Source: an uncultured Chitinophagaceae bacterium
GTDB taxonomy: Bacteria; Bacteroidota; Bacteroidia; Chitinophagales; Chitinophagaceae
NCBI GenBank assembly: GCA_963835995.1
Contig: CAWIHW010000001.1
Location: forward strand, 1,687,700 to 1,751,699
Length of the DNA stretch: 64,000 bases
Direction of reading: 5' to 3'
The notes under the pieces are model-generated. The model saw nothing but the letters and a program-made list of their open reading frames with translations. It did not search any database and had not been told where the DNA came from. Of the stretch, positions 3,612 through 18,337 are shown piece by piece. A program made the translations under genes and the position numbers. Each line of letters starts with the position of its first letter. Position 1 is the stretch's first letter.

Positions 3612-6600
3612 ATGATAGTTACTTATCCGCCGCGTACATCTTCAGCTACCCGGCTTCTTTTTAAACAACTGATAAAAAATACCATTTTATGTGCAATCGC
3701 GCTATCGGCCGGTATGTCATTACTTGCACAACAGAACAAATCTAATATTACGATAAAAGGTATTATTCGAAATGACAATTCCGTCGCGATCGGCCATGCA
3801 TCGGTCATTGTGAAGGGCACAAATACAGGAACCTCCAGCAACGATGAAGGTGAGTTTGAGATCACTGCGCCGTCAGATGCAACACTGGTCGTTTCTTATG
3901 TAGGTTATGAATCGAAGGAAATTAAGGTAAATGGAAGGAAATCGATTTCGGTAGTATTGAACCAATCTGACAAATCACTCGAACAGGTAGTAGTTATTGG
4001 GTATGGTACGCAGCGCAAGGAAGCTATAACGGGTTCCGTTTCCTCTATTAGTGGAGAGAAGCTTAATCAGAATCCTTCGTCTAATATTTCGAACGCGTTG
4101 CAAGGACGTTTGCCAGGGGTGCAGATATCGCAAACATCAACTCAACCGGGATCTACTATGCAAATTCTCATACGCGGCCAGCGTTCGTTATCCGCCAGTA
4201 ATGCCCCTCTGATTGTGCTGGACGGTATTCCTTTTTCAGGTTCTTTCAGCGATATTAATCCACAGGAAGTTAAGAGTATCAGTGTTTTGAAAGATGCATC
4301 AGCAACCGCTATTTACGGTTCACGCGGTGCCAATGGTGTAATATTGATAACCACTAATAGTGGAAGAGTAGGACAAAAACCACAAATCAGCTACAATAGT
4401 TATGTAGGTGTACACAAACTCTGGGCGCCTTTTCCAATGATGAACGGGCCCGAATTTGATACACTTCGTAAGGCAGCCGGCATATACACAAACGGTCCTT
4501 CAGAATCCGACGATGTAAATACCAATTGGCAAAAACTTTTTTACAGGCCTTCTGCTCCTGTTACTAATCAAACTGTATCGGTTTCCGGCGGCACTGAAAA
4601 GGGTAGCTATCACTTCGGGATAGCTTATTACGATGATCAATCCCTGATCCCTACACAGGATTTCAAGCGCTTTTCACTTAACAGCGGTATCGACCAGGGT
4701 GTAGGTAAGTATGTGCGTATTGGTTTTACTACCAATACAGACTATAATGTTTCACAAGGCTCTCAGGTGGGGTTGTACAATATTTTGAGCATGTCGCCTC
4801 TCGCCAGCCCATATAATGCTGATGGGTCATTGAGACAAAGCATACAAATGCCTCTAGACAATGATTGGAATGAGACAAGATATATTGTTGATAGCTTGAA
4901 AAACCAATGGCTAAACCCGATCAAAACACTTGGAACATACAATAACCTGTTCGGAGAATTGAATATCCCGGGCGTTCCCGGACTAAAATACCGCGTCAAT
5001 GTTGGCTTAAACTACAGTACGACTGACAACGATAGTTATACCGGAACAGGTATAACCAGCACCAATGCAACGACTCCTTCTGTTGCCACTATCATTCATT
5101 CTGTGACGCTCAACAAGACAATTGAAAACCTGCTGACCTACGACCGCACATTTTCCGGAAAGCATCATGTGAATCTTACTGCATTGTATTCGGCTGAGCA
5201 GGATAATTACAACAGTTCGGATATTTCGGCCCAGGGCGTTCCAAACGATCAGTTTCAATTCTATAACCTGGGGCAGGCCCTTGGTCAAATTACAATCAAT
5301 CCCAACTACCAAAGCTACACGCAGAGCGGCCTCGAATCGTGGATGGGGCGTGCCATCTATGAATTTTCCGATCGCTATATGCTAACGGCTATCGTTCGGT
5401 CTGATGGATCTTCCATATTGGCGCCAGGTCATCAATGGCATACCTATCCTGCGGTGTCCGCCGGATGGAATATTGCCAATGAATCATTTATGAAGAACAT
5501 TACACTTATAAATGAATTGAAGCTTCGTGTGGGATATGGACAAACTTCCAACCAGGCAGTTGCACCTTATTCTACCCTCGGACAATTAAGTACCAGCCCT
5601 TATAACTTTGGCCCCAGTAATGATGTTGTGGGGTATTATGTATCACAACTCCCAAATCCCAATTTAGGATGGGAATATTCGAAAACGTGGAACTATGGAT
5701 TGGATTTTTCGCTCTTGAACCATCGGCTTTCAGGTACTATAGAATATTACATCACAAAAACAAATGATCTTCTGCTGGGCGTTTCTTTACCTGTGACTTC
5801 GGGAGTAAGCAGCTATACGGCTAACATTGGAAATACCCAAAACAAAGGTGTGGAACTTTCACTCAACGGTACAATCCTGGATAATAAAAACGGTTGGACG
5901 TGGACAGCCGGTGTCAATTTTTATGGCAACCGTAATAAGCTCGTGGCACTTGCTTCGGGTCAGACCCAGAATATTGGCAACAACTGGTTCGTTGGACACC
6001 CGCTCAATGTGATTTACGACTACAAGAAGATAGGACTTTGGCAAGCAAAAGATTCGTACCTGAGTACTTTGGAACCTGGAGGAAATGTTGGAATGATCAA
6101 GGTGGAATATACGGGAGCATATAACGCAGATGGTACGCCTGCAAGAGCAATAGGTCCTGCAGATGAGCAAATACAGAATTTAGATCCTAAATTCCAGGGT
6201 GGTTTCAATACTACGGTAACGTACAAAGATTTTGACTTTACTGCTGTTGGACTCTTCCAAAGCGGGGGTATGCTGGTGAGCACTTTGTATTCAGCATCAG
6301 GTTACCTTAATTTATTATCAGGACGCAGAAACAATGTAAAGGTAGATTACTGGACACCTTCGAACACAAATGCCAAATATCCGAAACCGGGAGGCATAAC
6401 GAGTGGCGACAATCCAAAGTACGGAAGCACCCTGGGTTACTTTGACGCATCGTATCTAAAGGTGCAAAGTATAGCTCTCGGATACAGCTTTACTCATATG
6501 AACTGGTTAAGAAATTCAGGCATCAGTAGGCTGCGGCTTTACTTCCTGGTGGAAAATCCATTTGTGATGTTCTCGCCTTATTACAGCCAGACAGGCATGG

Positions 6601-6734
6601 ATCCTCAGACCAATTCGTATGGAGATCAAAATGCCGCAGTACCACTGTCATCCAGTTTGCACCGTATTTTGACGATTGGTACAAACACGCCGGAAACACG
6701 AAACTACCTTCTTGGCCTCAACTTGACATTCTAA
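3612..6734 (+). CDS. susC: SusC/RagA family TonB-dependent outer-membrane transporter
   Basis: CarboxypepD-like N-domain, plug with VVVIGYGT, LKDASATAIYGSRGANGVILITT, C-terminal F. Confidence 0.97.
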   Translation: MIVTYPPRTSSATRLLFKQLIKNTILCAIALSAGMSLLAQQNKSNITIKGIIRNDNSVAIGHASVIVKGTNTGTSSNDEGEFEITAPSDATLVVSYVGYESKEIKVNGRKSISVVLNQSDKSLEQVVVIGYGTQRKEAITGSVSSISGEKLNQNPSSNISNALQGRLPGVQISQTSTQPGSTMQILIRGQRSLSASNAPLIVLDGIPFSGSFSDINPQEVKSISVLKDASATAIYGSRGANGVILITTNSGRVGQKPQISYNSYVGVHKLWAPFPMMNGPEFDTLRKAAGIYTNGPSESDDVNTNWQKLFYRPSAPVTNQTVSVSGGTEKGSYHFGIAYYDDQSLIPTQDFKRFSLNSGIDQGVGKYVRIGFTTNTDYNVSQGSQVGLYNILSMSPLASPYNADGSLRQSIQMPLDNDWNETRYIVDSLKNQWLNPIKTLGTYNNLFGELNIPGVPGLKYRVNVGLNYSTTDNDSYTGTGITSTNATTPSVATIIHSVTLNKTIENLLTYDRTFSGKHHVNLTALYSAEQDNYNSSDISAQGVPNDQFQFYNLGQALGQITINPNYQSYTQSGLESWMGRAIYEFSDRYMLTAIVRSDGSSILAPGHQWHTYPAVSAGWNIANESFMKNITLINELKLRVGYGQTSNQAVAPYSTLGQLSTSPYNFGPSNDVVGYYVSQLPNPNLGWEYSKTWNYGLDFSLLNHRLSGTIEYYITKTNDLLLGVSLPVTSGVSSYTANIGNTQNKGVELSLNGTILDNKNGWTWTAGVNFYGNRNKLVALASGQTQNIGNNWFVGHPLNVIYDYKKIGLWQAKDSYLSTLEPGGNVGMIKVEYTGAYNADGTPARAIGPADEQIQNLDPKFQGGFNTTVTYKDFDFTAVGLFQSGGMLVSTLYSASGYLNLLSGRRNNVKVDYWTPSNTNAKYPKPGGITSGDNPKYGSTLGYFDASYLKVQSIALGYSFTHMNWLRNSGISRLRLYFLVENPFVMFSPYYSQTGMDPQTNSYGDQNAAVPLSSSLHRILTIGTNTPETRNYLLGLNLTF

Positions 6735-6747
6735 AAATCATATAATC

Positions 6748-8709
6748 ATGAGAACTATAAATAAAAAGAACAATGTGACAGCAGTAGTAACGGTGATGGT
6801 TATGCTGCTATTTACGTCGTGTTCCAAACTTCTGAAAGAAACACCGCGTAGTATCTTTACACCTGATTTTTTCAGTACTCCTGCAGGTGTAACAGGGGGA
6901 ATAACGTCCTTATACGCGAACCTGCGTTATATTTACGGAAACGCTTATTACTATAACACTGGTGAAACAGGTACCGATGAAGTAACGTACGCCCAAAGCG
7001 CGGATCAAAATTTTAAGGTCATGGACCTTTCAGGGCAGGGAGACATTAGTTCTCAGACCAGCCGTTCTGATGTGTTGTGGAATAATTCCTTTGGCGCTAT
7101 TAATACCGCAAGCGGCGTGATTCAAAATGGTTCCGCAGCGGGGGTTTCGCCTTCACTGGTTGCTGAGGCCAGGTTTTTTCGGGCATTTTATTACTTTCAA
7201 CTGGTTCAGACATTCGGAGGTGTTCCGCTGGATTTGGGTGCGGGGGTACTAAAGTTTAATACGAATCCGGTAGCCATATCTACACGAAACACGGTACCGG
7301 ATGTTTATACTAAATGTATATTCCCTGATCTTGACACTGCATTAAATGAACTGCCGGTAAATCCACGAGTAACCGGTGGTGTAACGCAGAACGTTGCACG
7401 CCTTTATTTGGCCCAGGCTTACCTGACATATGCATGGTGGTTACTAAATCCAAATAATATTCCTACTTATCCGGCAGCCGATCGAACTGATCCGGATGGT
7501 CAGACTTCTCAATATTATTTTCAACAGGCTTATAACCTTGCGATTACCGCTATTGACGATCCGGGCCCCTATGGACTGATGCCAACATTCTACGACTTAC
7601 ATAATGGGGCCAATGATTATAATAAAGAAGAAATGCTTTACGCTGATCACACACAGTTGAATGAACTTTCTAATGGGGCCAGTCTCACTTATGGCGGCGG
7701 CGGCGGCGAAGATAACTTTGCCGGGTGGATGATGACGTGGAATTATACTGTCCTTAGAAGCAGTACTTCCAGCTCTACCTGGACTCCGGTAAGTTCTGTT
7801 CAGCGTGCGGCAACCCAACCTCTTGGACGCCCATGGACACGTATGTGCCCTACGATCGGCGCAATCGAAAACACATTTGCCGACAAAACCAATGATTCCC
7901 GCTATGATGGTACTTTTGTTACTACCTACCATGGTAACTGGAATTTAAACGGAACTGGTATCAGTCAGACTACATTATATAATGCAAATAACCTTCCGGT
8001 TCAACCAGGTGATGCTATATTGACATTCCTCGACCAGCCAGATCCTTCAATTAGCTATCCTTCTGGTGCGGGTAACAGTAATATAGGAGCAGGTACTTTG
8101 CCAGGAAGATCTGATTTCGTAGTGGACCCTGATGGTATCAGCCGTGTAGTATATCCAGGGCTTTGGAAACTTGGTGAATATCGCACCGATAATAATGGCA
8201 CTTTGGGTCAACCGAATGCAGCGAGTACCCGTCCTTTTGTTATTGCTTATTTCTCTGAGTTTTATTTTATCGGAGCGGAAGCGGCGGTCATGGGTGCTAC
8301 CACCCAAGCCGGCCAAAGTGCGAGAGATCTTATCAATGTTATTCGTGCACGAGCGGGCATGTGGGACTATGACAACAATGGAGATTCGACCTTAATACAA
8401 GATAATAGCGCAGCGATGATCGCCGCAACGCCTGCAACGATAACTATTGACTACATTTTGGCAGAACGTTCCCGAGAATATTACGGAGATGGCAGACGCT
8501 GGCTCGATTTAGTACGTACGCAGCAATGGGCAAATCTTGCTTCGTCTTACGAAATTGCGGGACCTAATTACGGGGATCATACGGCACAAACTGTAACGCG
8601 CGATATTCAGCCCTATCTTTATCTACGCCCCATTCCGATAGGCCAGCTAAATAATATGCAGGCGGATTCAACAACCTTGTCGGGATATCAAAACCCCTCA
8701 TATCAGTAG
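6748..8709 (+). CDS. susD: SusD/RagB family glycan-binding lipoprotein
   Basis: Lipobox FTSC, EARFFRAFYYFQLVQTFGGVP, ERSREYYGDGRRWLDLVR; directly downstream of susC. Confidence 0.96.
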   Translation: MRTINKKNNVTAVVTVMVMLLFTSCSKLLKETPRSIFTPDFFSTPAGVTGGITSLYANLRYIYGNAYYYNTGETGTDEVTYAQSADQNFKVMDLSGQGDISSQTSRSDVLWNNSFGAINTASGVIQNGSAAGVSPSLVAEARFFRAFYYFQLVQTFGGVPLDLGAGVLKFNTNPVAISTRNTVPDVYTKCIFPDLDTALNELPVNPRVTGGVTQNVARLYLAQAYLTYAWWLLNPNNIPTYPAADRTDPDGQTSQYYFQQAYNLAITAIDDPGPYGLMPTFYDLHNGANDYNKEEMLYADHTQLNELSNGASLTYGGGGGEDNFAGWMMTWNYTVLRSSTSSSTWTPVSSVQRAATQPLGRPWTRMCPTIGAIENTFADKTNDSRYDGTFVTTYHGNWNLNGTGISQTTLYNANNLPVQPGDAILTFLDQPDPSISYPSGAGNSNIGAGTLPGRSDFVVDPDGISRVVYPGLWKLGEYRTDNNGTLGQPNAASTRPFVIAYFSEFYFIGAEAAVMGATTQAGQSARDLINVIRARAGMWDYDNNGDSTLIQDNSAAMIAATPATITIDYILAERSREYYGDGRRWLDLVRTQQWANLASSYEIAGPNYGDHTAQTVTRDIQPYLYLRPIPIGQLNNMQADSTTLSGYQNPSYQ

Positions 8710-8753
8710 GTTGAAAAAACTTACGAAAAAATAGTTTTTCTTCTCACAGTCAT

Positions 8754-8784
8754 AAAACTGATTCTGTTTAGGGTCAGTTTTTTT
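8754..8784 (+). terminator. Intrinsic terminator after susD
   Basis: AAAACTGATTCT-GTTT-AGGGTCAGTTTT stem with T-run. Confidence 0.7.
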
Positions 8785-8981
8785 ATTTACATGAATTTTA
8801 AAAGATTAACTTATTGATTTCAATAAAACAATTTGTAGATATTCGTTTAACCGGTATGTATAAATGATAATTATAAGTGCCTGATTGAACAAGGCTGCTT
8901 AATGTAATTTTTTTTGGTAAATAATTATTTGTTTCGTTCATATATTGCGATCTCTTCTTTACATTTTCACATAAAAATTTT

Positions 8982-10232
8982 ATGAAAGAAATCGTTGTAA
9001 TTGGCGGTGGAATTATGGGACTCAGCAGTGCACTTTATTTGCGACGTTCAGGCCATCGTGTAACTGTTTTGGATAAAGACGGATTTACTGATAATTGTTC
9101 TTACGGCAATATGGGCTATGTATGTCCGAGTCATTTTATTCCTCTTGCTTCGCCGGGAATCGTATGGCAGGGCATTAAATGGATGTTCAACAGCCGCAGT
9201 CCGTTTTATGTGCAACCGGCACTCGATTCCGCATTGATCAATTGGGGATTGAATTTTATGCGTAGTGCTAACAAAGAAAATATGGCAAATGTTGCTATTC
9301 CCTTAAAAGATATTGCGCTGTTCAGTCAGCACGAATATTTTGAATGGGCAAAAATTCCGGGTTTCGATTTTACATTGGAACGAAAAGGAGTATTGGAAAT
9401 TTTTAAGACAAACAAAGTAGCGGAACATGCGGCGCACACCGTTGAGACCGGAAAGAAATTGGGGTTGGACGTAGAACTGCTCGATCAGCAACGATTGCAG
9501 GCGCTGGAACCGCAAACGAGGGTTGATGCAAAAGGTGCGATCAATTTTAAATGTGATGCACATTTATATCCGAATCAATTAATGGATAATGTAAAGAAAT
9601 ATTTGTTGGCAAATGATGTACAGCTAATAAAAGGGGAGGTGTCTGGTTTTGAAAATAGTGATGGTAAAATAATTGATGTATTGGCCAACGGCAATGCTTA
9701 CAAAGCAGATGAAGTGGTGATTGCTACAGGATCGTGGAGCAGGCAGATAGCTGCAAAGCTGCAAACGAAAATTCCTTTGATGCCCGGCAGAGGATATTCT
9801 TTTACACTGGAAAATTCCGCATATAGGCTTAATCATCCTGCCATACTCACAGAAGGACGCGTGGCTATAACGCCAATGGAGAATGGTAATAAAATGCGCT
9901 ACGGCGGTACAATGGAAATTGTCAATATTAAAACACCGCCGAGGTATAACAGGGTGGAGGGAATCGTTCAGGCAGTAAAAGAATTTTTTCCTGAGTTTAA
10001 AATTGAAATGCCTGCCAAGGAACAGATATGGTATGGCTTCCGGCCAACTTCGGCAGACGGACTTCCTTACATTGGCAGGATAAAAAAATTTAAGAATGTA
10101 ACGGTTGCAACAGGACATTCCATGTTGGGCCTCAGCCTTGGTGCGGGAACCGGGAAACTGGTAAGTGAAATCATTAATGAACAAAAGCCCGGTATTGATT
10201 TAAGACCTTTCGAAGTAGAAAGGTTTGGATAG
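8982..10232 (+). CDS. FAD-dependent D-amino acid dehydrogenase family oxidoreductase (DadA-like)
   Basis: GGGIMG FAD motif, GFRPTSADGLP, TGHSMLGLSLG. Confidence 0.9.
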   Translation: MKEIVVIGGGIMGLSSALYLRRSGHRVTVLDKDGFTDNCSYGNMGYVCPSHFIPLASPGIVWQGIKWMFNSRSPFYVQPALDSALINWGLNFMRSANKENMANVAIPLKDIALFSQHEYFEWAKIPGFDFTLERKGVLEIFKTNKVAEHAAHTVETGKKLGLDVELLDQQRLQALEPQTRVDAKGAINFKCDAHLYPNQLMDNVKKYLLANDVQLIKGEVSGFENSDGKIIDVLANGNAYKADEVVIATGSWSRQIAAKLQTKIPLMPGRGYSFTLENSAYRLNHPAILTEGRVAITPMENGNKMRYGGTMEIVNIKTPPRYNRVEGIVQAVKEFFPEFKIEMPAKEQIWYGFRPTSADGLPYIGRIKKFKNVTVATGHSMLGLSLGAGTGKLVSEIINEQKPGIDLRPFEVERFG

Positions 10233-13083: not shown

Positions 13084-13725
13084 TCAGAGAAACGGATCTT
13101 CCGTTTTTACAAAGTTTACAAGCGCAGCCGTATTTTTGAGATTGAGTTTTTTCAAAATATTATAGCGGTGCACTTCCACTGTTTTGCTGGAAACCTTTAG
13201 TTGCTCTGCAATTTCTTTGGATGACAGGCCCTGCTTGATATAACCAACTACTTCCAGTTCTCTCGCAGATAAGGCATCGAGTCCGGGTTTCTGATTTTCA
13301 TCATTACCTGATTTTTCCGAAATGATTTTTTTTATTTCAGTGCATACATACGTTCCCCCATTCATTACCTCCTTGATTGCCTGGAAGATTTCGTCATAGG
13401 CAGAGTTTTTTGTTACGTATCCTTTGGCCCCTGCCTTGATCATGCGTTCTGCGATAGCAGGTTGGCTATGCATAGATACGCCAATGACTTTTGTTTTGGG
13501 AGATGAACTTTGAATTAAAGGTATTGCGTCTATACCAGAGGCTTCACGCAGATTGATATCAAGCAGCACGATATCAGGCTGCTTCTCTGCAATTAGTGCA
13601 ATCGCTTCACTAAATTCGCCACTTTCTCCCACCACATCCATTTCTGGATTCCAGCCAAATACATTGGCCCACATTTCTCTGATCATTTTGTGATCATCAA
13701 CGACCACGATAGTAATTTTATTCAT
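13084..13725 (-). CDS. NarL/LuxR family DNA-binding response regulator
   Basis: Receiver domain (VVDDH, LLDINL, K) plus LuxR HTH (LSARELEV..GLSSKEIA). Confidence 0.95.
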   Translation of the reverse strand: MNKITIVVVDDHKMIREMWANVFGWNPEMDVVGESGEFSEAIALIAEKQPDIVLLDINLREASGIDAIPLIQSSSPKTKVIGVSMHSQPAIAERMIKAGAKGYVTKNSAYDEIFQAIKEVMNGGTYVCTEIKKIISEKSGNDENQKPGLDALSARELEVVGYIKQGLSSKEIAEQLKVSSKTVEVHRYNILKKLNLKNTAALVNFVKTEDPFL

Positions 13726-14344: not shown

Positions 14345-14670
14345 ATGTTACTGACTGAATTGACAGGGTTAAGCAGTGCAGGCAAAATAACACCATGGAA
14401 TTATTGCTGGCGAAACATAACGCTAATTCAATTTTGGCTGCCATAAATCCTTATGAAGAAGCACGATAACAATTGAAGGATTCTGGTAATTCAGTGAAAA
14501 CCGTTTTTATAGATCGCCCGGCACGGTAGCGAAAAACGGGGTCCCAAAAATTTATATAAAAAACACATTTGACGGATGATCAGCAGGGGCATATTAAAAA
14601 CTTTACCGGCGTCAATGATCCTTTCGAAATACCTTTGGATGACGGCCAGATTATTAAATCCGTGGCATAA
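14345..14670 (+). pseudogene. cysC: Degenerate adenylyl-sulfate kinase (CysC) remnant
   Basis: Four colinear fragments in different frames: LTGLSSAGKIT (P-loop), LLAKHN..ILAAINPYEEAR*, EKRGPKNLYKK and GHIKNFTGVNDPFEIP. Confidence 0.75.
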
Positions 14671-14765
14671 GACAGGGAACAAGTGCCCAATGCCCTAGTG
14701 ATTTTATTGTATAGTCGATACAGAAAGCCGTAAATTGAAGAGAAAAAAGATCTGAATTATTTCCA

Positions 14766-15833
14766 ATGAATAATCCTCCTCCGCCATTTGCCTGCACTTA
14801 TTCACCCAATGTAGCAGAATTGCTTACGCAATTGAACTGCTCTATCGCGATTACCACTTACCAGGCGGGTAAATTAATTTTTCTCTCACCCGATGGCATA
14901 AATGCAATGCGGCAATTACCGCGTGACTTTGAAAAAGCTATGGGATTGGCTATAAATCAAAACCGAATGGCCATTGCAACAAAGCAGGAGGTAGTCGTGC
15001 TCGCCAATGCACCCGGGCTGGCCTTAGAATACGCAACAAAACCAGGTTTTTATGATACGTTCTATGTGCCGCGGGCATGCTATTACACGGGCACAGTTGA
15101 TATTCATGATATGGATTGGGACGAAGAGGGAAAATTATGGGCGGTAAATACATTATTTTCCTGCCTCGTGACCATAGATGATGAATATAGCTTTCGACCT
15201 CAATGGATGCCTCCTTTTATCAAAACCTTTGAAAGCATTGATGCCTGTCATTTGAATGGCATGTGCATGGTGAATGATAAACCAAAATACGTAACCATGT
15301 TTGGCACCACTACTACTGCAAAAGGATGGAGACCGGGTGTTGAAACAAATGGATTAATGATGGACATTGATACCAATGAAATTGTTATTCAATCATTACC
15401 TATGCCTCATTCGCCAAGATGGTTCGACGGGAATTTGTATTGCCTGCTTTCAGCAACCGGGCAATTAATAAAAGCAGATGTGCACAGCGGAAGGTATGAT
15501 GTTGTTTGCCAATTGAAAGGTTTTGTAAGAGGCATGGCAAAATATGGAGATTATGTATTTATCGGGCTTTCGAAGTTGCGACAAAATGCATCTACGTTCC
15601 GCGATCTTGCGATCAGCAAAGATGCAATGTATTGCGGGGTGGAAATAATTCATTTACCTACCGGCGCCAATGTAGGGAACATAAGATACCTTCAAAGTGT
15701 AGAAGAAATATATGATGTACAAATACTGTCAAATTCTTTGCGACCCGGGGTTCTAAATCACACTTCACCAGTGCATCGTCTGGCCCTGCACACTCCGCAG
15801 TCTACTTATTGGGCGGTGAGTGCAGAAAATTAA
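14766..15833 (+). CDS. TIGR03032 (DUF4915) family protein of unknown function
   Basis: TTYQAGKL, YYTGTVDIHDM, DACHLNGM and PHSPRW motifs characteristic of the family. Confidence 0.85.
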   Translation: MNNPPPPFACTYSPNVAELLTQLNCSIAITTYQAGKLIFLSPDGINAMRQLPRDFEKAMGLAINQNRMAIATKQEVVVLANAPGLALEYATKPGFYDTFYVPRACYYTGTVDIHDMDWDEEGKLWAVNTLFSCLVTIDDEYSFRPQWMPPFIKTFESIDACHLNGMCMVNDKPKYVTMFGTTTTAKGWRPGVETNGLMMDIDTNEIVIQSLPMPHSPRWFDGNLYCLLSATGQLIKADVHSGRYDVVCQLKGFVRGMAKYGDYVFIGLSKLRQNASTFRDLAISKDAMYCGVEIIHLPTGANVGNIRYLQSVEEIYDVQILSNSLRPGVLNHTSPVHRLALHTPQSTYWAVSAEN

Positions 15834-15899
15834 TTTCCATAGAAAATTAATTTCGTTAACTTTCCTATAAGTTAATCCATCAGCCAAAAACTTTAATAA

Positions 15900-17504
15900 T
15901 TGAATACGAAGCTTTACACTGCCAACAATTATTACAAAACTTTAGAACGACTCGAAAAAAGTTTGCAGTCGGGAAGATTTGTAACATATTCCCAGTACAA
16001 GAAACAACAGATATGGAACCGGCTTAAGCGATATGCACGACAGTTGGGAATTTCAATAAAATCGTCTCTTATCACCGCTTGTATTGCTGCGGGATTATGT
16101 TTGAGTTCCGGTAATGCTAATGCTCAAATAACTTTTACACCGGAAACCGGCATAAATAATCCTTTAGACGCAGTTGACGTGCATTATAATTCGACACCTG
16201 CCTTTGTTGATATTGACGGCGATGGAGATTTTGATTGTTTTGTCGGCACTTATAATGGAACAATATCTTATTATAAAAATACCGGGACTTCTACAATGCC
16301 GGTATTTGTGCAGCAGACGGGAACGAACAATCCATTAAACAGTGTGAACCTGACTTATCCTATAGTACCCTTCTTTGTTGATATAGATGGCGATGGTGAC
16401 AAAGATCTATTCATAGGCCTAAATGATGGAACGGTGATCTATTACAAAAATGTAGGCACAGCCACTGCTCCTTCTTTTGTTTTACAAGCCCCTGCGGCTA
16501 ATCCTCTTAATGGAATAACGAATGGGGCGGACTATGCCATCCCCGTTTTTGTCGATATAGACGGAGATGGTGATTTTGATCTGTTTTTAGCGGGTTCGCA
16601 TCTTGGGAATATTTTATATTTTAAAAATACCGGAACCGCTACAGCACCGGTTTTTACCGCTGAAACAGGGGCAGCCAATCCGTTCAATGGCTTTATAGCT
16701 AGTGGATACTACGCCGCTCCTGCTTTTGCGGATTTGGATGGTGACGGAGATCTTGATGCAGTAATCGGGTCGGGATCTGGTTCATTTGCATATTTTGAAA
16801 ACACAGGAAGCTCAACAACACCGATATTCACACCCCAGACAGGTTCAAACAATCCATTAAATGGTATTACATTGAGTTATGTTACCACACCAGCTTTTGT
16901 GGATATTGATGGTGACGGAGATCAGGATCTTTTTAGTGGAGAATATTATGGTAAGGTATATTATTTCAAAAACACAACCGGAGCACTACCACTCACTCTC
17001 ATCCGCTTCGCAGGTATAGGGCATGATGGCTTTAACCAGATCCAATGGACAACTTCAGCGGAACTGAATACCAAATCTTTTGAGTTGGAACACAGCAGCG
17101 ACGGCATTACATTTACTCAAATAGCAACAGTAGCAGCAACCGACAATACAAACAATAACTACAGCGCGGTTGATAATAATATTGCGGGCGGCAAAATGTA
17201 TTATCGCCTAAAAATGATTGATATCGACGGCCGTTATACCTACAGCCAGGTAATATGGATCAACAATGGAAATTCAAAGGGAATTGTTATCTATCCTAAT
17301 CCCGCCACCAATACGGTGAATATTAACATGGGTTATTTACAGGCTCTAAAAACCAAAGCATCTGTCTATAATGCTGATGGTAAGCTTATAGAAAATATTG
17401 AAATCAGCGACAACCAGTTACAAATAGATATCTCCGGGTATACCAAAGGAAAATATTTTATCAGATTTACAGACGGAGCAGTGCGGAGTTTTATCAAAAA
17501 TTAA
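15900..17504 (+). CDS. Secreted FG-GAP/VCBS-like repeat protein with T9SS type A C-terminal domain
   Basis: Five ~57-aa repeats each with a DxDGDGD Ca-binding loop; LPLTL linker; YPNPA..KGKYFIRF CTD. Confidence 0.9.
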   Translation: MNTKLYTANNYYKTLERLEKSLQSGRFVTYSQYKKQQIWNRLKRYARQLGISIKSSLITACIAAGLCLSSGNANAQITFTPETGINNPLDAVDVHYNSTPAFVDIDGDGDFDCFVGTYNGTISYYKNTGTSTMPVFVQQTGTNNPLNSVNLTYPIVPFFVDIDGDGDKDLFIGLNDGTVIYYKNVGTATAPSFVLQAPAANPLNGITNGADYAIPVFVDIDGDGDFDLFLAGSHLGNILYFKNTGTATAPVFTAETGAANPFNGFIASGYYAAPAFADLDGDGDLDAVIGSGSGSFAYFENTGSSTTPIFTPQTGSNNPLNGITLSYVTTPAFVDIDGDGDQDLFSGEYYGKVYYFKNTTGALPLTLIRFAGIGHDGFNQIQWTTSAELNTKSFELEHSSDGITFTQIATVAATDNTNNNYSAVDNNIAGGKMYYRLKMIDIDGRYTYSQVIWINNGNSKGIVIYPNPATNTVNINMGYLQALKTKASVYNADGKLIENIEISDNQLQIDISGYTKGKYFIRFTDGAVRSFIKN

Positions 17505-17626: not shown

Positions 17627-17642
17627 CCCCGACTCGTCGGGG
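17627..17642. repeat. Short REP-like palindrome CCCCGAC-TC-GTCGGGG
   Basis: 7-bp perfect inverted repeat in the 5' UTR. Confidence 0.45.
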
Positions 17643-17686: not shown

Positions 17687-18337
17687 ATGAAGTTGCTGAA
17701 TTTTCTCATTAAATACCGGTTGCTACTGGGTATTATTGCTTTGGTTGCGGCCGTCGCTGTGAATCTGTACTCTGGATTTTGGCCGTCTTTTATTTTGTAT
17801 CTCATTGCTGCAATTGCCATTGTTGGGCATTTCCTTTTTGGCCCTTTGCGCCTCATTCAATCGCACATGGAGACCGGAGATATGGAAGGCGCGCAGAAAG
17901 TGCTGGACTCGATTAAGTTTCCCGGCCTGCTTATAAAGCCGGTGCGCTCTGTATATTATACGTTGAAAGGTAATCTTGCTATGGTGAATGAGGATTATGA
18001 AAATGCAGAAGCACACATGAAGAAGAGCCTTAGCCTTGGTATGCCCATGAAGGAAGCAGAGGGTGCCAACAAACTGCAGTTAGGGATGCTTGCCATGCAA
18101 AAAGGAAATATTCGTGAAGCAGAAAGTTATATCCGCCAGGCGATCCGCTCAGGGCTGCCCGATAAAGAAAATGAAGCGGCAGCTTACCTGCAACTGTCTT
18201 CTATCATGATCAATAAGAGAGAATTTCGTGCGGCTAAGGAATATTTCAGAAAAGTAAAATCACTGAAGCCCACCACGCCCCAAATTGTGGACCAGGTAAA
18301 ACAAATGGAAAAATATATCTCGCGAATTCCCGGATAG
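17687..18337 (+). CDS. Membrane-anchored tetratricopeptide repeat protein
   Basis: Two N-terminal TM segments followed by TPR-like helices. Confidence 0.75.
   Translation: MKLLNFLIKYRLLLGIIALVAAVAVNLYSGFWPSFILYLIAAIAIVGHFLFGPLRLIQSHMETGDMEGAQKVLDSIKFPGLLIKPVRSVYYTLKGNLAMVNEDYENAEAHMKKSLSLGMPMKEAEGANKLQLGMLAMQKGNIREAESYIRQAIRSGLPDKENEAAAYLQLSSIMINKREFRAAKEYFRKVKSLKPTTPQIVDQVKQMEKYISRIPG

Follow-up and report, generated by a model that had tools for sequence, protein, structure and literature searches.

A TIGR03032/DUF4915 protein and an FG-GAP cargo of the type IX secretion system in an uncultured Chitinophagaceae bacterium: a conserved gene pair and candidate pre-export maturation cassette

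Genes of the cassette and conservation of the pair

The stretch analysed here (the window) comprises 64,000 nucleotides of the genome of an uncultured Chitinophagaceae bacterium (GenBank assembly GCA_963835995.1, contig CAWIHW010000001.1, positions 1,687,700 to 1,751,699 of the forward strand). We studied two co-directional genes in it, the first encoding a protein of the TIGR03032/DUF4915 family (DUF4915 below; open reading frame (ORF) 14766-15833(+), ATG start) and the second an FG-GAP protein that is a cargo of the type IX secretion system (T9SS; ORF 15900-17504(+), 534 aa, TTG start). A first-pass annotation, made from the sequence letters, had placed the DUF4915 gene 66 bp upstream of the gene for a T9SS-secreted protein and both of them behind a remnant of cysC, the gene for adenosine 5'-phosphosulfate (APS) kinase. 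The ORF coordinates and the matches to profile hidden Markov models (HMMs) confirmed the pair and its 66-bp spacer. The features are collected in Table 1.

Table 1. Features of the cassette, with their positions in the window
Feature	Position	Strand	Description and basis
cysC (APS kinase) pseudogene	14345..14733	+	decayed first gene of the cassette; PF01583 match and nucleotide alignment to L021
TIGR03032/DUF4915 protein, 355 aa	14766..15833	+	intact, cytoplasmic, all-beta propeller; PF16261, TIGR03032, AlphaFold2 (AF2)
Cargo signal peptide with its extension, aa 1-76	15900..16127	+	two basic helices, h-region (aa 55-63) and cleavage site; alignments, AF2 helices, HMM
Five-bladed FG-GAP calcium-binding propeller, aa 77-360	16128..16979	+	PF13517, AF2, Foldseek
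Beta-sandwich spacer domain, aa 365-458	16992..17273	+	AF2 strands 367-456; weak F5_F8_type_C match
T9SS type A C-terminal sorting domain, aa 464-534, and stop codon	17289..17504	+	PF18962, TIGR04183

The DUF4915 protein matched PF16261 with 374.1 bits (cut-off 35) over profile positions 2-316 of 316, and TIGR03032 with 347.1 bits (cut-off 251.5). No signal peptide was detected in it, in agreement with its first description as a cytoplasmic member of the family. The family motifs HD/HE, D..CHLNG, GWR, MPHSPR and RG, which are invariant in the homologue alignments, were all present. Among the literature searched, no paper on the family was found. The AF2 model (predicted local distance difference test 92, predicted TM-score 0.91) has 28 strands, and Foldseek searches of the PDB with this model returned only generic six-bladed Kelch/YWTD propellers and designed propellers, at a TM-score of about 0.5 and about 10% identity. 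As 28 strands are compatible with seven blades too, the number of blades is not fixed at six. A profile search of the PDB sequences gave no relative of DUF4915 (best E 0.61), and as the candidates were generic propellers only, none was accepted as a characterised enzyme relative. About 22 residues were found to be invariant across 59 divergent members, including H114, D159, H162, N164, H215, S216, R218, R255 and R272. They are spaced by about 50 residues, or approximately one blade, and lie at strand starts in consecutive blades; they may form a catalytic or anion-binding site in the central channel. In comparison to an orthologue of 86% identity, the ratio of nonsynonymous to synonymous substitution rates (dN/dS) of the DUF4915 gene was 0.064.

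The cargo matched FG-GAP_3 (PF13517) in five stretches with 98.7 bits, and its sorting domain (aa 464-527) matched PF18962 with 50.6 bits (cut-off 27) and TIGR04183 with 38.1 bits (cut-off 23). In each of the five repeats DxDxDGDxD and NxG are invariant in the homologue alignment, and the AF2 model shows five four-stranded blades. Matches of this propeller in Foldseek were CRTAC1, integrin alpha-V and PVL lectin. The earlier description of a T9SS-secreted protein with five DxD-type FG-GAP repeats was thus correct, based on PF13517, the sorting domain and the five loops. The same description had called the repeats tyrosine-rich, and this could not be upheld as a feature: homologues have either Y or F at the Tyr positions, and the propeller contains no invariant Tyr. 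The Tyr-rich repeats were for the same reason rejected as conserved sulfation sites. The dN/dS of the cargo gene, determined with an orthologue of 86% identity, was 0.116. Its TTG start (15900) directly follows a stop codon, and there is no ATG in the leader. The TTG start is common to the three closest relatives that were checked (L036 11134, L033 11207, L039 11133), and 20 of 26 more distant cargo homologues have an ATG start.

Conservation of the gene order was determined in 80 species-representative loci with 52-86% DUF4915 identity, which together with the window made 81 loci, mainly from Chitinophagales, Saprospirales, Cytophagales, Flavobacteriales and Bacteroidales with a few other orders; ORFs were called and the neighbours clustered. 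Five increasingly distant DUF4915 proteins (86-59% identity) stood in five unrelated contexts, each time followed by an FG-GAP_3 gene for about 530-545 aa, and in three of these contexts an APS kinase gene was located directly 5' of the DUF4915 gene. The FG-GAP cluster was the sole broadly conserved neighbour of DUF4915. It was present in 50 of 75 loci, with the gene at position +1 on the same strand in 40, and the second most frequent neighbour cluster was found in 13 loci only. DUF4915 and the FG-GAP gene are a conserved functional module and not a chance adjacency, and the statement of the first-pass annotation that TIGR03032 genes often lie near FG-GAP proteins was borne out in these loci. 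The cassette is accessory: 4 of the 37 genomes examined from the genus have it, as do about 2.5% of those in a phylum sample.

Some loci have a different gene content. In one Chitinophagaceae context (L023/L032, 9230-9994) a 254-aa ORF with no Pfam match replaces cysC, 6 bp from the DUF4915 start. In Fulvivirga and relatives (L054, L056, L076, L084, L092) DUF4915 is followed by a gene for an acyl carrier protein (ACP) of about 86 aa and one for a cytochrome P450 of about 399 aa. This variant cassette suggests acyl or oxidative chemistry. An FG-GAP gene with the leader described below lies about 2.2-2.8 kb downstream in four of these five loci, and none was detected in L092.

The signal-peptide extension of the cargo

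The cargo begins with a basic extension of about 55 residues, which is followed by a hydrophobic core and an ANA|Q cleavage site. The h-region (aa 55-70) and the A|Q site are conserved across homologues, as in a Sec signal peptide. AF2 predicts two basic helices in the extension (aa 8-24 and aa 32-49), with the h-region after them. The alignments showed the extension to be common to the FG-GAP partners of DUF4915, and the same extension was found on T9SS cargo of other types (600-2500 aa) where a gene for a tetratricopeptide repeat (TPR)-GT41 protein comes after DUF4915. The dN/dS of the extension was 0.125, indicating purifying selection.

With an HMM of the extension, 59 of the 81 loci were positive, in every case on the DUF4915 strand, and 43 of the extension-bearing genes begin 0-400 bp 3' of DUF4915. 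Seven of the 22 negative loci were truncated. In the 5.1-Mb genome from which the window comes only one of 23,517 ORFs was detected, with 76.5 bits, the next best ORF reaching 11 bits. Among 61 related genomes, in which DUF4915 was counted as present when TIGR03032 scored above the cut-off, the extension was present in 8 of 9 positive and 0 of 52 negative genomes (Fisher p = 3e-9, kinship uncorrected), and in 6 of these 8 genomes the leader-bearing gene adjoins DUF4915. The phylum sample, 401 genomes evenly drawn from Bacteroidota, had the extension in 4 of 10 DUF4915-positive as compared to 1 of 391 negative genomes (p = 1e-6). This strict coupling between DUF4915 and a cleavable extension of the cargo signal peptide is the most specific new result of the analysis, and it lies outside what the first-pass annotation had considered.

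The DUF4915-positive genomes without the extension form part of another subclade (families f51 and f44), with a cassette that consists, in this order, of an FG-GAP/T9SS cargo of about 1030-1060 aa, a small PID-CTERM-like protein, a TPR-GT41 protein and DUF4915. This cargo, too, has an N-terminal extension, which covers about 65 aa up to the h-region and A|Q and is unrelated in sequence to the type in the window. The small secreted proteins of f51 are 82-90 aa long and have a PID-CTERM-like sorting tail with the sequence PIDGGLG(L/I)LAAAGGAYALKKLR at their end, and their genes lie between the FG-GAP cargo and TPR-GT41/DUF4915 (L119 12614-12886 and 16023-16271; L121 5236-5487). In the phylum sample the f51 genomes also have ORFs of about 327-340 aa that match only TIGR03032 positions 183-320, with 33-53 bits. 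They are probably a distant paralogous propeller family.

Extended signal peptides are known from type V secretion, where cleavage of the signal peptide also removes the ESPR (extended signal peptide region, PF13018), to which a likely influence on targeting or on the kinetics of export is ascribed (PMC8151025). Like the extension of the cassette, the ESPR is found ahead of a signal peptide that is otherwise normal; its carriers are large surface proteins. However, it is 25 aa long, whereas the extension of the cassette has about 55 aa in two helices of unrelated sequence, stands on a T9SS cargo and co-occurs strictly with a cytoplasmic protein. PF13018 gave no match in the cargo at E <= 0.01, and the extension is therefore not the ESPR of type V systems.

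The APS kinase gene and decay of the cassette

The remnant upstream of DUF4915 matched PF01583 at 14359-14640 (36.6 bits, E 1.4e-8) with 3 in-frame stops. In comparison to the intact, syntenic cysC of locus L021, the region of the ATG at 14345 is conserved, and the remnant has a 142-bp internal deletion, stops, substitutions and small indels. The deletion takes out the LDGD..ENIRR motifs, and the features by which an intact CysC was recognised (P-loop, LDGD and DLGF..ENIRR in one frame) were not found together here. The remnant reported in the first-pass annotation is a genuine pseudogene and not an assembly artefact.

In relatives an intact cysC lies 33-65 bp 5' of DUF4915 or overlaps it, and the CysC of the cassette is a divergent subtype, which scored about 150 bits as compared to 200-240 for housekeeping copies. 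Three genomes of the same genus (G004, G011 and G012) have a single APS kinase each, encoded directly 5' of DUF4915. In G011 and G012, which are both 100% complete, no Sulfotransfer_1, Sulfotransfer_2 or Sulfotransfer_3 protein was detected. These genomes have a cysH-cysD pair, which is also present in genome G018 where there is no APS kinase; sulfate assimilation therefore does not need CysC. An APS kinase was found in 9 of 9 DUF4915-positive relatives and in 25 of 52 others (p = 0.003, kinship uncorrected). The corresponding counts were 4 of 4 and 2 of 11 for genomes of the genus that are at least 90% complete, and 9 of 10 and 140 of 391 in the phylum sample (p = 8e-4, kinship uncorrected). 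The association of the module with 3'-phosphoadenosine 5'-phosphosulfate (PAPS), the product of APS kinase, is real.

The genome from which the window comes has a second, intact cysC, which shares a polysaccharide cluster with a gene of the Sulfotransfer_2 family. The pattern, seen in only four genomes, is complementary: the cassette cysC is retained as the sole copy and lost where another copy exists. The cluster (C1:3442311-3450161, outside the window) encodes a 296-aa CysC with an apparently hydrophobic N-terminal extension, and two identical 110-aa ORFs (C1:3446830-3447162 and 3447714-3448046) lie beside it. A second cluster, also outside the window (C1:4533706-4535805), has a Sulfotransfer_1/3 gene beside a CysQ-like ORF, which was named from its N-terminal sequence only. 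Both sulfation clusters are of polysaccharide type.

The cassette erodes differently by genome, and in the genome of the window cysC is what was lost. In G021, a genome of the same genus (L126, G021:C14:225000-237000, 5240-6996), cysC is intact, and a deletion has left the first 40 codons of DUF4915 fused to the cargo gene at about residue 185. In G004 (L127, G004:C8:648000-662000, 3945-8983) cysC and a full DUF4915 gene are followed by a spacer of about 1.2 kb, a partial DUF4915 (residues 218-350) and the FG-GAP gene, an arrangement that looks like a local duplication or insertion within the cassette. A second gene with the leader is located on a different contig of G004. These forms of decay, the patchy distribution in the genus (4 of 37 genomes) and the pseudogene itself would fit a cassette that is a functionless relic in the genome of the window, with the remaining two genes on the way out. 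We regard this as very unlikely, as both ORFs are of full length, all invariant residues are kept and the dN/dS values are low (0.06 and 0.12). Furthermore, the second intact APS kinase can substitute for the lost one, and most loci across the phylum do without an adjacent cysC.

A proposed maturation step before export

Based on the gene order and its conservation, the co-occurrence, the dedicated kinase and the purifying selection, all of which were observed, we propose that this is an accessory Bacteroidota cassette in which DUF4915 acts in the cytoplasm on the pre-cargo, guided by its leader, before Sec/T9SS export, and that in this lineage the action depends on PAPS. We give this proposal an even chance of being correct. 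The cassette would have three genes, encoding an APS kinase (a pseudogene here), a cytoplasmic DUF4915 beta-propeller and a T9SS-secreted five-bladed FG-GAP protein. The pre-protein of the cargo would be made in the cytoplasm, where DUF4915 would engage it, most likely via the extension, and either modify it or ready it for export. Signal peptidase I would later cut off the extension at the conserved A|Q site, and the cargo would leave the cell by Sec and then by the T9SS. In the Chitinophagaceae version the step would probably need PAPS from the CysC of the cassette itself; in the genome of the window, where that CysC has decayed, the second CysC of the polysaccharide cluster could supply it. 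In this scheme, the binding of DUF4915 to the extension, its catalytic role and the transfer of sulfate are inferences.

Several results weigh against this proposal. The adjacency of cysC is confined to a subclade of Chitinophagaceae (about 6 of 81 loci), and most loci consist of the pair only. With an HMM made from fused sulfotransferase domains no sulfotransferase ORF was found within 10 kb on either side of DUF4915 in the 81 Bacteroidota loci. The earlier statement that sulfotransferase genes are frequent neighbours was accordingly not supported, and a sulfotransferase as neighbour in the cassette was rejected. The sulfotransferase search in G011 and G012 covered three families only. Where sulfotransfer chemistry is evident in the family, a separate domain fused to DUF4915 accounts for it, an argument against DUF4915 itself being the transferase, and neither Foldseek nor the PDB sequence searches found an enzyme relative. 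No invariant Tyr, Ser or Thr marks a sulfation site in the cargo alignment, and the leader has no invariant residue apart from the Q at the cleavage site. Fifteen loci in which the sequence extends 2 kb or more downstream had no leader-bearing gene detectable with the extension HMM, and one genome (G200) has the leader without DUF4915. Finally, the co-occurrence statistics are not corrected for phylogeny.

The family at large shows with which activities DUF4915 is combined. An exhaustive search (E <= 1e-3) gave 3175 representative clusters. When the distant representative P0144 served as the query, the homologues found were again from Bacteroidota. Among the best 150 representatives 83 were multidomain proteins, and 59 multidomain members that were scanned carried Sulfotransfer_3 (22), TPR (19), Sulfotransfer_1 (9), Asp/Asn beta-hydroxylase (9), GT2 (5), GT41 (4) and GNAT (3) domains. 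A custom HMM detected a sulfotransferase fusion in 31 of the 150. The architectures included hydroxylase-sulfotransferase-DUF4915, sulfotransferase-DUF4915, DUF4915-TPR-GT41, TPR-GT41-DUF4915, GT2-DUF4915 and DUF4915-GNAT. In a flagellated organism outside Bacteroidota, the gene for a DUF4915-TPR-GT41 fusion likewise has an FG-GAP_3 gene directly after it.

Seen together, these results leave the broader ideas of the first-pass annotation partly standing. Its sulfation link is favoured by the intact, dedicated APS kinase of relatives and the sulfotransferase fusions, and disfavoured by the limitation of cysC to a subclade, the absence of a neighbouring sulfotransferase and the absence of a conserved Tyr. 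The co-occurrence with cysC, sulfotransferase and hydroxylase that it proposed to check was found for cysC in the subclade and, as fusions, for sulfotransferase and Asp/Asn hydroxylase, and no separate sulfotransferase gene was found within 10 kb in the 81 loci. The idea of a dedicated maturation module for a secreted propeller agrees with the conserved pair and the PAPS association.

The combination with sulfotransferase, hydroxylase, GT41, GT2 and GNAT domains is typical of a substrate-docking module. DUF4915 could accordingly be a non-catalytic adaptor or holdase, which binds the extended signal peptide or the acidic calcium-binding loops and keeps the pre-cargo export-competent. In other lineages it would recruit the fused or neighbouring modifiers, and the APS kinase would be an add-on for a modifier encoded elsewhere. 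The fold resembles the peptide-binding Kelch/YWTD propellers, the invariant poly-Asp loops of the cargo could dock onto an invariant surface rich in Arg, His and Lys, and in most loci the pair stands alone with no other enzyme. A chaperone role towards HMW1A has been proposed for HMW1C, a comparable case (PMC8151025). However, about 22 invariant residues including three His, as against a leader with no such residue within it, fit a universal small ligand or catalysis better than the recognition of a peptide, and TPR domains, which are themselves protein binders, are often co-fused. A non-catalytic role also leaves unexplained the dedicated APS kinase of G011 and G012, where no sulfotransferase of families 1-3 was detected. 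We consider the adaptor possible, though somewhat unlikely.

The same two genomes are the basis for a stronger form of our proposal, in which DUF4915 itself would be a PAPS-using beta-propeller sulfotransferase or sulfate-handling enzyme of a new fold, docked to the T9SS cargo via the cleavable extension. This was considered because the sole APS kinase of G011 and G012 is encoded 5' of DUF4915, sulfotransferases of families 1-3 were undetected and sulfate assimilation is independent of CysC. We judge it to be unlikely.

DUF4915 might also act on a small molecule or glycan, for example a sulfated sugar, that later decorates the cargo or the cell surface, with the adjacency reflecting co-regulation. 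The GT2 fusions and, in some loci, the neighbouring genes for ACP with P450, GNAT and methyltransferase would agree with this. PAPS is also the donor for polysaccharide sulfation, for which the genome of the window has two clusters. However, the 1:1 coupling of DUF4915 to an extension that is lost from the cargo during export would not be expected of a sugar pathway. Among the neighbours in the 81 loci there is also no conserved gene for a glycosyltransferase or for sugar-nucleotide metabolism, and the GT41 and Asp/Asn hydroxylase partners are enzymes directed at proteins. We regard a small-molecule or glycan substrate as quite unlikely.

Our proposal of a leader-guided cytoplasmic step has parallels in known systems. 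HMW1C and EtpC are GT41 N-glycosyltransferases that modify the two-partner-secreted adhesins HMW1 and EtpA, and the signal peptide of the substrate is unusually long (PMC8151025). In both cases the gene of a dedicated cytoplasmic enzyme adjoins that of a secreted repeat protein, which is modified before Sec export, as we propose here, and in the sister subclade a TPR-GT41 gene stands between cargo and DUF4915. In contrast to HMW1C and EtpC, the partner here is a DUF4915 propeller of unassigned activity, the export route is the T9SS and not the type V system, and the associated kinase makes PAPS and not a sugar donor. Neither the Pfam scan of the window nor the Chitinophagaceae contexts showed a GT41, which other DUF4915 subclades do have.

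PAPS-dependent protein tyrosine sulfation is carried out by RaxST on RaxX in Xanthomonas and by the eukaryotic tyrosylprotein sulfotransferase (TPST). The proposed step would likewise be a PAPS-dependent change of a secreted polypeptide by an enzyme encoded nearby, and DUF4915 is often fused to Sulfotransfer_3. The cassette differs in that no protein of the sulfotransferase fold is encoded nearby, the cargo has no conserved Tyr, and the substrate would be a folded 50-kDa propeller instead of a peptide. In comparison to these systems a sulfotransferase is missing from the module, whereas a dedicated PAPS supply exists in the relatives G004, G011 and G012 and has decayed here. Sulfotransfer on a beta-propeller scaffold has a precedent in ASST and Cpz4, beta-propeller sulfotransferases with His/Arg active sites, which are periplasmic and PAPS-independent. 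DUF4915 matched neither PF05935 nor PF14269, and ASST and Cpz4 were absent among the 50 Foldseek matches listed. The co-occurrence of a cleavable N-terminal leader with a cytoplasmic processing protein also resembles the leader-guided maturation of ribosomally synthesized and post-translationally modified peptides. There, however, the core is not a full-size Sec/T9SS protein as it is here; in the cassette the leader at the same time forms the n-region of the signal peptide, and there is no RiPP recognition element (RRE) domain.

TIGR03032/DUF4915 is a large family for which no literature was found, and the locus is a compact version of two to three genes. It offers a testable partner (a small T9SS propeller), a likely recognition element (an extension that occurs once per genome) and a likely co-substrate (PAPS). 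If our proposal is true, it would add a new maturation step before export for T9SS cargo, give a role to a domain that occurs in many bacteria in fusions with sulfotransferases, hydroxylases and GT41 enzymes, and show that extended signal peptides can serve as docking sites for dedicated cytoplasmic partners. If DUF4915 should itself be the PAPS-using enzyme, no protein-sulfation pathway would have been known before from Bacteroidota, and no Sec/T9SS substrate whose modification is guided by a leader.

The nearest homologues came from Ginsengibacter and other metagenome-assembled genomes (MAGs) of Chitinophagaceae. The 1040 bp 5' of the DUF4915 gene are free of ORFs. In the promoter and terminator scan, promoter-like sites at the locus were as frequent as expected from shuffled sequence and the 66-bp spacer had no terminator. 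A TPR gene (17687-18337) and a response regulator gene (13084-13725) were rejected as members of the module, because they are syntenic in the closest relative only. Evidence for T9SS machinery is indirect only, in that the locus of a relative has an annotated GldD-type lipoprotein at the corresponding syntenic position, and a single terminator-like site is located 3' of the cargo gene at 17627-17642.

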